Origin: a virus
Taxonomy: Duplodnaviria > Caudoviricetes
DNA length: 64,000 nt
IMG/VR virus record: IMGVR_UViG_3300042288_001626
Direction: 5' to 3' (one strand)
Under the pieces are notes generated by a model, which saw nothing but the letters and a program-made list of their open reading frames with translations, was not told the DNA's origin and did no database searches. Made by a program: the position numbers and the translations under genes. Every line of letters begins with the position of its first letter. Positions within the stretch are counted from its first letter, which is position 1. Shown in pieces: positions 30,118-34,292 of this stretch.

Positions 30118-30714
30118 CTAGATCATGAACAAATTTTTAAACGTGGTATGCCCACGAAGCTTGTTCAAAAATGTCTGTACCATCATACCTGCCACAATAG
30201 TAGGTAGTGTGTGGCTGATATTTTCTGTCTTCTCATAAGCTAAGAGACACCCAGCTTCCTCTTTACTGTCGTTAATATATGGAAGCAGCTGTTCTTTTGG
30301 AATGTCGCTGTTGAACAAACAACCTTGCCTACTTGTACACCTTCCGTCAATCCAGAACAACCCGCTGTCTTTTTTATTCCAGCCATACTCATACAGTGCC
30401 TTACGAAAGGTCATGCTGTCAACACAGCAAAAGATCAAATCGTAGTTTTTAAAGTCACTCTCGGTCATTCTTCTTTTGTGTCCGTTGACAACGTACTTAT
30501 CTTCAAGAACTTCTACTTTGTACTTACCGATATCATCGAGCTTAAAATTTTGATGAAGTAGGTTCTTTACATCTACCGTGTCGTCGTCAAATAGGTCAAC
30601 AACAATATCCGCATAATTGAACTGCTTGCGATTAAAGCCATAGTCGAAAAAGATGGCTAGAAGGTTGCTACCGATGCCTCCTGCCCCAGCGATTGCTACT
30701 TTTTTCACGTTCAT
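30118..30714 (-). CDS. ThiF/MoeB/E1-family adenylyltransferase (ubiquitin-like activating enzyme), minimal
   Basis: IAGAGGIGS Rossmann motif, DDDTVDVKNLLHQ, IGKYKV, CVDS, WIDGR, Cys156 in EAGCLL. Confidence 0.92.
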   Translation of the reverse strand: MNVKKVAIAGAGGIGSNLLAIFFDYGFNRKQFNYADIVVDLFDDDTVDVKNLLHQNFKLDDIGKYKVEVLEDKYVVNGHKRRMTESDFKNYDLIFCCVDSMTFRKALYEYGWNKKDSGLFWIDGRCTSRQGCLFNSDIPKEQLLPYINDSKEEAGCLLAYEKTENISHTLPTIVAGMMVQTFLNKLRGHTTFKNLFMI

Positions 30715-30721
30715 GTTGATA

Positions 30722-31150
30722 TTACTTTGACTGACTTGTGCTCAGAACCGTATCGAGACTGGTATATGTGGCTACAGATTGCTCATTTCTCCAGGTAGAA
30801 TATGAGAACGTTTTGGTTGCTGCCGAATAAATAACGTTGTGTTTGAATCCTCTAAACAACACAGTAAGGTCTAGCTGGCTGGGGGTGGCAGAGAAGGATG
30901 GATGCGTATGGAAACTAGCAAACAGTCTCCATCCTTCTCTGATGCGTTCAATTATCTTTTCTCCCAACTCTGCTCGATTAGCAACATACAGCCCGATTGC
31001 TGTATGTGTTCCTGCGTGGTCGTTTCTTAGAGGCACAAAAAGGAAGCTGTCGTCCTTCTCTAAAATCACGCCTCCTTTCTCCTCATCAGAACCTCCGCAA
31101 ATCTCCGCAGCCTCTAGTATAACTCTAGAGAAGTTGATTGAAGACATCAT
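30722..31150 (-). CDS. JAB/MPN+ (JAMM) metalloprotease
   Basis: EEKGG catalytic Glu and exact HxH-x7-S-x2-D: HTHPSFSATPSQLD. Confidence 0.9.
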   Translation of the reverse strand: MMSSINFSRVILEAAEICGGSDEEKGGVILEKDDSFLFVPLRNDHAGTHTAIGLYVANRAELGEKIIERIREGWRLFASFHTHPSFSATPSQLDLTVLFRGFKHNVIYSAATKTFSYSTWRNEQSVATYTSLDTVLSTSQSK

Positions 31151-31821
31151 ACCGATTTGATGGTGTTGTATATCTCTTCAAGCGCGTCAAGCGTATTCAG
31201 AAAATAAGCTTCGGCCTCGTCAGAATTCTCTTGAGCTAGCTTGTAGTAAGGCACGTTCGAAATCACATGGTGAATGCTTAGCATGCGGGCAACTTCCTGC
31301 AGATTTTCGGGGTGACTCAGGCTTCCACAAGCCCACCTTTTCGCTATATCGAAGTGATTAGAGTCCTTCAACCTGCCTGTGGCTGCTGGTGAGTAAAAGG
31401 CAGAAAAGAAAGGGAACCCGTACCTGGCTCCTTTACGTGCAAGCAAAGGATATATAAATTTTTCTCCTCTGAATGTGATCGTGTCTGTCCAGGGGTCGTT
31501 TGGATCCTCGTTACTCTTGAGGTTGTCATGCAACCACTCAAAAATATCGTGTTCGTCTTCCACAAGGGCATCACCCCCATACAAACCCACTATCCGCTGC
31601 GTGCCTGTCTCTAGATTTGTGAGACCTACAGCGCAGACTTCACAGGTATTGTCGTTAAACTGTGCCTCAGAAATATATTTATTTTTTTTCTTTTCAATAT
31701 CTTCAGCGATCTTAGCAGGATCTTTTAAATTTGATGCAGCTTTAAAATCAGGAGCTTTCGCAAGCAACTCAGTAAGAGTGAGTGGCTGAGTTTCGATATG
31801 GATAATGTATGTCTTTTTCAT
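31147..31821 (-). CDS. DnaQ/PolB-exo-like 3'-5' exonuclease fold, catalytically degenerate
   Basis: ExoI DIET appears as HIET; ExoII NG..FD as RGEKFI; ExoIII Y...D as YFLNT. Confidence 0.6.
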   Translation of the reverse strand: MKKTYIIHIETQPLTLTELLAKAPDFKAASNLKDPAKIAEDIEKKKNKYISEAQFNDNTCEVCAVGLTNLETGTQRIVGLYGGDALVEDEHDIFEWLHDNLKSNEDPNDPWTDTITFRGEKFIYPLLARKGARYGFPFFSAFYSPAATGRLKDSNHFDIAKRWACGSLSHPENLQEVARMLSIHHVISNVPYYKLAQENSDEAEAYFLNTLDALEEIYNTIKSV

Positions 31822-31824
31822 GTG

Positions 31825-33882: not shown

Positions 33883-33889
33883 GGTGTTT

Positions 33890-33929
33890 AAAAAAAGAAA
33901 CCCTCCAGAGCACGTGGCCCTGGAGGGTT
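33890..33929 (-). terminator. intrinsic terminator directly after the Ubl gene
   Basis: AACCCTCCAG/CTGGAGGGTT 10-bp stem followed by TCTTTTTTT. Confidence 0.8.
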
Positions 33930-33956
33930 ATGGTTAAACCTGCGTGAGCGAGTCGA

Positions 33957-34292
33957 CTAGTTCAGCAGACCCCCGCCCATCACAACACCAGTGAGCATTA
34001 CCTGTGCTGCAGGGTTGTTAACAAGCGCCTGACGCAGCTTTTGCTGATTGGCTTCTGTGCGTACATTGCTTCCTTCGAACTGGAACGGAGTGCCGTTGAT
34101 GTACACCCAATGCGCCTTCTTTTCCACACGGTCAAGAATGTTTTCCGTGGCTTGTTCCATGGAAAGATCTGCAAGAGTGGTGTGGCCTGTGGAATCTGCG
34201 ATTTCTACTTTGTAGTTGTTCATGATAATAGAGGAGGTTGCTTCGATAGAGGTGGAGTTGTTGATTTCGGAGGAGATGATGTTGTTGTTCAT
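33957..34292 (-). CDS. ubiquitin-like (ThiS/MoaD beta-grasp) protein precursor ending GGG-LLN
   Basis: YKVEIAD beta1, WVYING, C-terminal VMLTGVVMGGG like ThiS/MoaD V.I.P.V.GG, plus 3-4 residue tail; co-operonic with JAB and E1. Confidence 0.78.
   Translation of the reverse strand: MNNNIISSEINNSTSIEATSSIIMNNYKVEIADSTGHTTLADLSMEQATENILDRVEKKAHWVYINGTPFQFEGSNVRTEANQQKLRQALVNNPAAQVMLTGVVMGGGLLN

Follow-up and report, generated by a model that had tools for sequence, protein, structure and literature searches.

The DNA analysed here, referred to throughout as the window, is a 64,000-nucleotide stretch of a large, uncultured virus of the Caudoviricetes (Duplodnaviria; IMG/VR record IMGVR_UViG_3300042288_001626) that encodes a candidate phage-borne ubiquitin-like (Ubl) protein conjugation module. 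The open reading frame (ORF) listing, which covered 26–39 kb, revealed an unbroken run of genes on the minus strand across this region and, at 30118–34292, the five co-oriented, packed genes that a preliminary description made from the sequence alone had reported, with the same coordinates and gaps. Read along the minus strand, these genes encode a 111-amino acid (aa) beta-grasp protein precursor, which we have designated the Ubl (33957–34292; ORF, alignments A1 and A9, AlphaFold and Foldseek); a 685-aa multi-domain protein of an unannotated family, the core partner of the set (31825–33882; ORF, 125-sequence alignment A5 and a structure model); a 224-aa DnaQ/RNase H-fold exonuclease-like protein (31147–31821; weak Pfam RNase_H_2 match and alignment A6); a 142-aa JAB/JAMM metallopeptidase (30722–31150; Pfam Prok-JAB and alignment A4); and a minimal E1-like adenylating enzyme of 198 aa (30118–30714; Pfam ThiF and alignments A3 and A8). 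The Ubl gene is separated from the gene of the large protein by a 74 nt spacer, and the later junctions measure 3, -4 and 7 nt. A consensus scan and the sequence itself revealed a terminator-like hairpin on the same strand within this spacer (33899–33929; 13-bp stem with 8 G-C pairs, followed by a T-run), which is probably an attenuator that would give an excess of the modifier over the enzymes.

The Ubl consists of a variable, N-rich N-terminus, a core at approximately residues 25–107 that closes with G106-G107, and a G-L-L-N tail that would need removal (C-terminus ...LTGVVMGG-GLLN). It matched no Pfam, PHROG or NCBIfam family. The AlphaFold model (m234c2c7caf12, from an 11-sequence alignment; core predicted local distance difference test score (pLDDT) 80–87) had the topology beta-beta-alpha-beta-beta-alpha-beta, which agrees with the beta-grasp-like protein that had first been proposed; a model of another fold, which would have argued against that proposal, was not obtained. 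Foldseek placed the Ubl next to ubiquitin, SUMO, FAT10, PB1 and UBX domains, with weak E-values of 0.02–0.1: nearly all of the top PDB neighbours and 30/30 of the listed Swiss-Prot models were ubiquitin-like beta-grasp proteins, and neither ThiS nor MoaD was among the top neighbours in either set. With this modelled fold and an exposable C-terminal Gly-Gly, the Ubl has the predicted features of a beta-grasp modifier or carrier.

Alignment of the Ubl homologues (A1 and A9) showed G36, W62, G106 and G107 to be invariant. The C-terminal motif could be written as [LV]-[LT]-[TSN]-x-x-[LVI]-x-G-G, with the Gly-Gly invariant in every lineage found, and the tail that follows it was unconserved and ranged from 0 to about 210 residues across lineages. 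The Ubl ended exactly at GG in five lineages (L014, L019, L022, L024 and L030; such handles denote individual phage loci), among them L022, the one lineage without an adjacent JAB gene. Tails of 1–8 variable residues followed the GG in most lineages. At L017 (8351–9169) and L020 (3988–4941) the Ubl formed the N-terminal domain of 272-aa and 317-aa proteins respectively, fused after the GG to unrelated extensions of approximately 200 aa, and cleavage after the GG would release a second protein, similarly to eukaryotic ubiquitin fusion proteins. The L020 extension was very basic, with many Lys and Thr residues. Neither extension had a Pfam match, and the idea that they are homologues of separate window genes was dropped as tblastn gave no match. 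The pattern of a constant Gly-Gly and a variable tail is as would be expected of a modifier or carrier that is exposed by a peptidase and then activated by an E1 at its terminal glycine.

The JAB protein belongs to Pfam Prok-JAB (PF14464), scoring 28.3 bits against a cut-off of 25 (1.7e-6), and was matched weakly by the PADLOC JAB models. Its JAMM motif, E23/E24...H81-x-H83-x7-S91-x2-D94, was invariant in 11 homologues (A4), so the exact E...HxH-x7-S-x2-D motif noted at the outset is intact. The enzyme is predicted to trim the Ubl tail after the Gly-Gly and possibly also removes conjugates. The E1 belongs to Pfam ThiF (PF00899; 66.3 bits against a cut-off of 28.1, 2.9e-18) and consists of a single Rossmann-type ThiF domain (residues 4–192), without zinc CxxC pairs, a rhodanese domain or a second domain. 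Its nucleotide-binding loop, GxGGIGS (GAGGIGS in the window), and D99 were invariant (A3 and A8), and Cys156 (codon 30247–30249) was the sole invariant cysteine among six E1s that were 26–56% identical (A8). The loop and Cys156, from which the ThiF/E1 identity was first read, are kept even in E1s with as little as 26–35% identity. We take the location of Cys156 to be the crossover-loop cysteine position of E1s and ThiF.

The best NCBIfam match of the E1 was PRTRC_ThiF (TIGR03736), at 47 bits against a cut-off of 144.75 (2e-12), and its scores against the equivalogs TIGR02356 (28 against 275) and PRK08644 (41 against 159) were far below their cut-offs. The PADLOC CBASS E1-E2 models touched only the first ~75 residues, which hold the Rossmann loop, at E 1.5e-6 or weaker, and the E1 retrieved nothing relevant from the PDB by sequence or profile search. 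One relative, L013 (6682–8456; IMGVR_UViG_3300027749_000235), had its mini-E1 gene split just before the invariant NLLHQNF motif by an insert of approximately 1.15 kb carrying a 323-aa ORF for a LAGLIDADG-type homing endonuclease (Pfam LAGLIDADG_3, 4.3e-7). A group I intron was considered for this insert and dropped, as there was no Rfam match. Such elements tend to home into strongly conserved positions of important genes.

Approximately 20 phage loci were examined for conservation of the gene set, with parts of the distant loci confirmed using custom hidden Markov models. When 12 window proteins were compared with IMG/VR loci by tblastn, the genes for the Ubl, the large protein, the JAB and the E1 were adjacent in 10/10 distinct close relatives, on contigs of 27–190 kb (mostly 120–190 kb), and were always located between GP88/PolA and a 354-aa protein/RecA. 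The same set was linked in the distant lineages L016, L017, L019, L022, L024, L028 and L030, whose large proteins gave E-values of only 1e-17 to 1e-22 against the family profile. At every locus with enough flank a GG-ended Ubl adjoined the large gene and the locus encoded a mini-E1 of 195–207 aa; a JAB gene was present at all such loci except L022. In the clade formed by L017, L019, L022, L024 and L030 the gene order was large protein, Ubl, (JAB), E1, and the neighbours were ribonucleotide reductase, dUTPase, RecU, DnaG, sigma-70 and a different PolA; the Ubl is thus upstream of the large gene in one clade and downstream of it in the other. Judged from these comparisons, chance falls far short of explaining the four-gene arrangement, since synteny holds in all relatives found. 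As the linkage survives changes of gene order and of neighbours, it would have been selected rather than inherited as synteny, and its persistence across gene orders and genomic backgrounds is strong evidence for a functional module. Co-conservation had been set as a test on which the proposal could fail, and the linkage was kept in all relatives found.

The exonuclease-like gene behaved differently from the other four. Of the 10 distinct close relatives five carried it, the distant loci all lacked it, and where present it was either intact or degenerate. On this distribution the gene is an optional accessory passenger outside the conserved core, and the five-gene unit of the preliminary description is reduced to four co-conserved genes. 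The 'dead exonuclease' label itself was borne out: the window copy reads H-I-E and FRG..FIYP, having lost the acidic residues, and L002 and L014 retain DIET, FNG..FD.P and DYLxND (A6). In the window this passenger occupies the slot between the large gene and the JAB gene. Additionally, a DUF8296 protein was inserted between the JAB and E1 genes at L016 (7652–8083), and the module seems to tolerate inserted accessory genes. L022 (2259–5373) had the order DnaG, large protein, a 71-aa Ubl ending exactly at GG, and ThiF, with no JAB nearby, followed by a gene with a dGTP diphosphohydrolase-like N-terminal domain (PF18909).

Lambdoid tail-assembly clusters contain phage pairs of a Ubl and a JAB that lack an E1 (PMC1779556), and the Ubl could accordingly be a chaperone or assembly factor that is only processed, as with lambda tail assembly protein I and the JAB domain of protein K, or the E1 could carry out MccB-like C-terminal chemistry on the Ubl or on a released peptide. 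The C-terminal extensions of the L017 and L020 fusions, which cleavage would release, fit such a use. Against it, the E1 keeps an intact nucleotide-binding loop and an invariant cysteine in every lineage with enough flank, and the module is located in replication regions, not tail regions. We regard this non-conjugating use as very unlikely.

For the large protein, a profile search of 1.84 billion representative proteins revealed 404 clusters (at 50% identity) with E <= 1e-3, of which 260 had E <= 1e-10. Full-length members were nearly all 600–790 aa long, carried no precomputed Pfam domain and were named 'hypothetical protein' in their sources, apart from two stray automatic names unrelated to function. 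At L001 (7693–9752) the gene was split or frameshifted into ORFs of 79 aa and 622 aa, which could be a sequencing error or a pseudogene. The sequences compared were only 17–30% identical, and in this alignment (A5) R138, D167, G420, C616 and D641 were invariant and C392, Y290 and N374 nearly so. Only two cysteines were conserved, Cys616 in 125/125 sequences and Cys392 in 99% of them.

The structure model of the large protein (m8cf9da621b19, from 125 sequences) had a pLDDT of 90.3 and a predicted template modelling score of 0.75. The whole protein matched no solved structure, with no Foldseek match in the PDB at E <= 0.001; a Mediator chain was near this line at E 1.5e-3, with a template modelling (TM) score of 0.10. 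Searches of the AFDB clusters and BFVD with the model returned only unnamed proteins or names without function, feature searches of the ESM Atlas gave no result, and PDB sequence and profile searches with the family and with its C-terminal domain gave nothing relevant. A phage-nucleus shell protein of the chimallin type was also considered and was dropped, given a confident model without a meaningful match to a solved structure.

Structure searches returned UEV, BubB-E2 and apparently RWD-type chains that matched the C-terminal region only, among them the BubB chain 9eav_D, which weakly matched residues 564–649; each of these scores was below the noise level of the tool for a 685-residue query. 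The region concerned, residues 543–660 (31903–32256, minus strand), is modelled as a long helix, four strands (578–582, 585–591, 596–600 and 606–608), a loop bearing Cys616, a helix (629–639) and the motif N640-D641, which is invariant. In the model Cys616 (codon 32035–32037) lies in a 20-residue loop, 8 residues past the fourth strand and 13 before the next helix. This order of elements is that of the UBC fold, and by the spacing of canonical E2s Cys616 would stand at the position of the E2 catalytic cysteine. That a single superfamily recurs on this one region is suggestive of a UBC/E2-like C-terminal domain, and we treat residues 543–660 as a candidate UBC/UEV/RWD-like (E2-like) domain. Of the Ubl, E1, E2 and JAB set named in the preliminary description, the Ubl, E1 and JAB could be upheld; the E2 was unrecognisable by sequence, and the case for one draws on weak structural similarity and the topology of the C-terminal domain.

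Taken together with the gene linkage, these features favour a phage-borne Ubl conjugation module of four core genes with a giant, non-canonical E2-like partner, a reading that we judge to be evenly poised between right and wrong. Several observations weigh against it. No E2 was found by sequence in Pfam, PADLOC or PDB profile searches, the sole match on the C-terminal domain being a weak one to DUF7737, and PADLOC run on 62 C-terminal domains gave no match to an E2 model. The canonical HPN motif is missing from this domain. The E1 lacks an N-terminal arginine segment and carries NLLHQ where the canonical E1 motif is NLxRQ. For a predicted complex of the E1, Ubl(25–107) and the large protein the score was 0.09, with the mark set at 0.32, a value that by the statement of the tool speaks neither for nor against binding. 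Finally, conjugation in the archaeal SAMP and TtuB systems involves no E2, and the large protein therefore need not be an enzyme.

Following from this last point, the mini-E1 alone could activate and transfer the Ubl, as in SAMP/UbaA or in the manner of Thermus TtuB/TtuC, with the large protein acting as the main substrate, a scaffold or a specificity adaptor and forming no thioester itself. The failure to find an E2 by sequence and the invariant cysteine of the E1 itself are consistent with such E2-independent conjugation, and the tight linkage of the large protein to the Ubl fits a dedicated substrate as well as an enzyme. The conservation pattern of the large protein points the other way: an invariant Cys616, R138, D167 and D641 and a 99% conserved Cys392 at 17–30% identity are more typical of catalytic residues, a modified substrate would be expected to conserve a lysine, and the predicted topology around Cys616 is UBC-like. 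On balance E2-independent conjugation is rather unlikely.

The weak DUF7737 (PF24879) match recurred across the family. Sub-threshold matches were present in 26/62 family members and 3/3 related records (E 3e-5 to 5e-4), with scores of 17–21 bits against a cut-off of 27, which is short of membership. Proteins with both DUF4132 and DUF7737 were the most frequent named shape neighbours of the large protein, with TM scores below 0.3. This suggests that the C-terminal domain is remotely homologous to DUF7737 without being a member of it. The likeness to the bacterial DUF4132/DUF7737 proteins is remote, and these proteins are themselves uncharacterised; they are not known to be associated with genes for a Ubl, an E1 or a JAB.

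The two conserved cysteines of the large protein could also serve a different chemistry. The Ubl might form a thiocarboxylate, as do ThiS, MoaD, CysO, TtuB and QbsE, and donate sulfur to a nucleotide, a tRNA, a DNA base or a cofactor. The large protein would in that case be a new kind of sulfurtransferase, in which Cys392 and Cys616 could form a persulfide relay. The best curated matches of the E1 include ThiF-type sulfur-carrier adenylyltransferases, all below their cut-offs, and the module lies among genes of nucleotide and DNA metabolism; sulfur could be supplied by host IscS or other host enzymes. JAB-trimmed, GG-tailed carriers are known in the CysO/Mec+ and QbsE/QbsD systems (PMC1779556). 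A sulfur relay would need a partner enzyme, and none had been recognised in the preliminary description of the window. This negative was extended to five related phage genomes, rated 76–97% complete by CheckV, in which six families gave no match: PP-loop thiolases (ATP_bind_3, PF01171), cysteine desulfurases (Aminotran_5, PF00266), rhodanese (PF00581), MoaE, ThiG and PALP. The same searches hit 11–14 of 14 control genomes, and ThiF was found exactly once in each of the five related genomes. The sulfur-carrier reading is weakened by the lack of a partner-family enzyme in these genomes and of a rhodanese domain in the E1. Additionally, the large protein matches no Pfam family beyond the weak DUF7737 match, its two conserved cysteines are in our judgement too few for a conserved Fe-S site, no PP-loop motif was seen in it by inspection without a formal scan, and ubiquitin and SUMO, not ThiS or MoaD, rank highest among the structural neighbours of the Ubl. 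We hold a sulfur carrier to be unlikely, and ranked it after E2-independent conjugation and before a processed, non-conjugating Ubl.

Comparison with described systems placed the phage set closest to Bil in its logic. The Bil systems are antiphage operons of the genes BilA–D, in types I and II (Hor et al., bioRxiv 10.1101/2023.09.04.556158; described in PMC11601596). Both contain a Ubl with a C-terminal glycine, together with a JAB, an E1 and a conjugating component that bears a cysteine, and the window order of Ubl, conjugating partner, JAB and E1 matches the Bil gene order. The differences are that the phage set lies in lytic-type phage genomes, whereas Bil is located in bacterial defence islands; that the phage partner is a multi-domain protein of approximately 700 aa without sequence similarity to E2s, whereas BilB is a small UBC-fold E2; and that the phage E1, with its single ThiF domain and 198 aa, does not match the BilD architecture in so far as it is set out in PMC11601596. 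PADLOC gave only the weak JAB and E1-E2 model matches for the phage set.

A CBASS Cap2/Cap3 system would be marked by an E1-E2 fusion (Cap2) beside a CD-NTase that serves as substrate through its C-terminus; the phage E1 is a single domain of 198 aa, and no CD-NTase family was found among the 19 window proteins scanned with Pfam. The PRTRC cassette, which would combine its ThiF component with ParB and the PRTRC proteins A, B, C, E and F, provides the best curated match for the mini-E1 and resembles the phage set in having a short E1 on a mobile element with a JAB and small Ubl-like genes. However, the phage E1 scores far below the PRTRC cut-off and the large protein has no PRTRC counterpart, which places the set outside this group; the other four proteins had no NCBIfam match, to PRTRC models or otherwise, and there was no ParB among the 19 Pfam-scanned proteins. 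PRTRC cassettes, carried by plasmids and integrative and conjugative elements, are presumably related to the mobile E1/E2/JAB/Ubl operons of Iyer, Burroughs and Aravind (2006).

The Bub (6E/DUF6527) operons work through serine and tyrosine oxyester intermediates and have no catalytic cysteines (Ye et al., PMC11601596). They resemble the phage set in a diverged E2 (BubB, a minimal UBC fold), a Ubl fusion precursor cleaved after glycine by the peptidase of the operon and a compact E1 (PMC11601596), and differ from it in that the phage E1 and large protein keep invariant cysteines and that the phage set has no DUF6527 protein. The ThiS/ThiF, MoaD/MoeB, CysO/MoeZ/Mec+ and TtuB/TtuC systems share a GG-terminated beta-grasp carrier and an adenylating enzyme of ThiF fold, and the CysO and QbsE systems in addition a JAB peptidase that unmasks the Gly-Gly; the equivalog scores far below cut-off, the missing rhodanese domain and the partner of approximately 700 aa, which has no parallel in them, set the phage module apart from these carriers. 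The phage module thus follows a Bil-like logic but is outside the Bil, CBASS Cap2/Cap3, PRTRC and ThiS/MoaD systems.

No counterpart was found among catalogued phages. In blastn and tblastn searches, the INPHARED GenBank phages gave no match to the whole region, to the large protein or to the E1, and the window PolA had only two remote matches among GenBank phages, so the lineage appears to be without a deposited relative. PHROGs had no family for four of the five proteins, and a narrow, pattern-based scan of 185,579 prokaryotic genomes with alignment A2 found no relative. Literature searches returned bacterial systems and the lambda Ubl/JAB pair and no paper on a phage-encoded Ubl/E1/JAB module with a partner of approximately 700 aa, in agreement with the preliminary description, which was not aware of a described complete phage-encoded system of this kind.

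The module is flanked by replication and recombination genes, all on the minus strand. Pfam identified a DnaB-like helicase (40418–38991), PolA with an N-terminal UDG domain (38988–36274), GP88 (36329–35547) and RecA (28998–27796). Two genes without an assigned function, encoding proteins of 271 aa and 110 aa, lie between GP88 and the Ubl in the ORF listing, and a 354-aa protein without a Pfam match is encoded between the E1 and RecA. The flank identities given originally were supported by Pfam for GP88, PolA and RecA; the name 'SSB', given to the 354-aa protein, has no Pfam match behind it. The N-terminal domain of the family A DNA polymerase belongs to the uracil-DNA-glycosylase superfamily (Pfam UDG, 3.5e-10), and the same fusion was present in the distant loci L020 and L028. 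Within one large clade (seen in the window, L016, L020, L021 and L028) a Cys-rich GP88-family protein (PF17338) was encoded upstream of the Ubl module, a few genes away. The clade in which sigma-70 and RecU are neighbours lacked it, and GP88 is therefore probably not part of the module. The 271-aa upstream protein (34712–35527), which had no Pfam match, had weak homologues (24–42% identity) at the same position in several close relatives and could be an accessory of the module.

From the homology and intact motifs of the E1 and JAB, the Gly-Gly of the Ubl, the gene linkage and the invariant cysteines we infer protein conjugation, and with it thioester chemistry, an E2-like function and a target of some kind. 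In the proposed pathway the Ubl precursor would be made in excess, as the terminator-like hairpin after its gene suggests. The JAB would cut it after the Gly-Gly, which is consistent with an intact JAMM site and variable tails. The mini-E1 would then adenylate the exposed glycine and form a thioester on Cys156, as its ThiF homology and the conservation of this cysteine suggest. The Ubl may next pass to the large protein, onto Cys616 of its UBC-like C-terminal domain. In what is the weakest of these steps, the approximately 540 N-terminal residues of the large protein may pick the target, combining the roles of E2 and E3. The set was always found among early/middle genes of replication and recombination, a location suggesting that it acts on host or phage proteins while the genome is being replicated.

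A further-reaching version of the conjugation reading, which we offer tentatively and lean against rather than towards, is that the large protein represents a new class of giant cysteine-dependent Ubl-conjugating enzyme that unites E2 and E3 in one chain, possibly with a relay from Cys616 to Cys392. The phages would then carry a complete ubiquitination-like system, spread over hundreds of lineages, that during replication would modify host proteins for takeover or counter-defence, or their own proteins, as the viral mirror image of Bil.

Conjugation of Ubl proteins in bacteria has been demonstrated only recently, and as a weapon against phages (Bil and CBASS Cap2). If the conjugation reading is true, bacterial viruses would also use protein tagging, by means of a complete and widespread module, with conservation in at least 404 sequence clusters and no occurrence in the catalogued phages searched. 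Mechanistic work would gain a very small E1 (approximately 195 aa) and a new conjugating partner of unassigned structure; the parts of the module are small and soluble-looking. The link to DUF7737 and DUF4132 might, in addition, offer the first functional handle on a large uncharacterised bacterial family.

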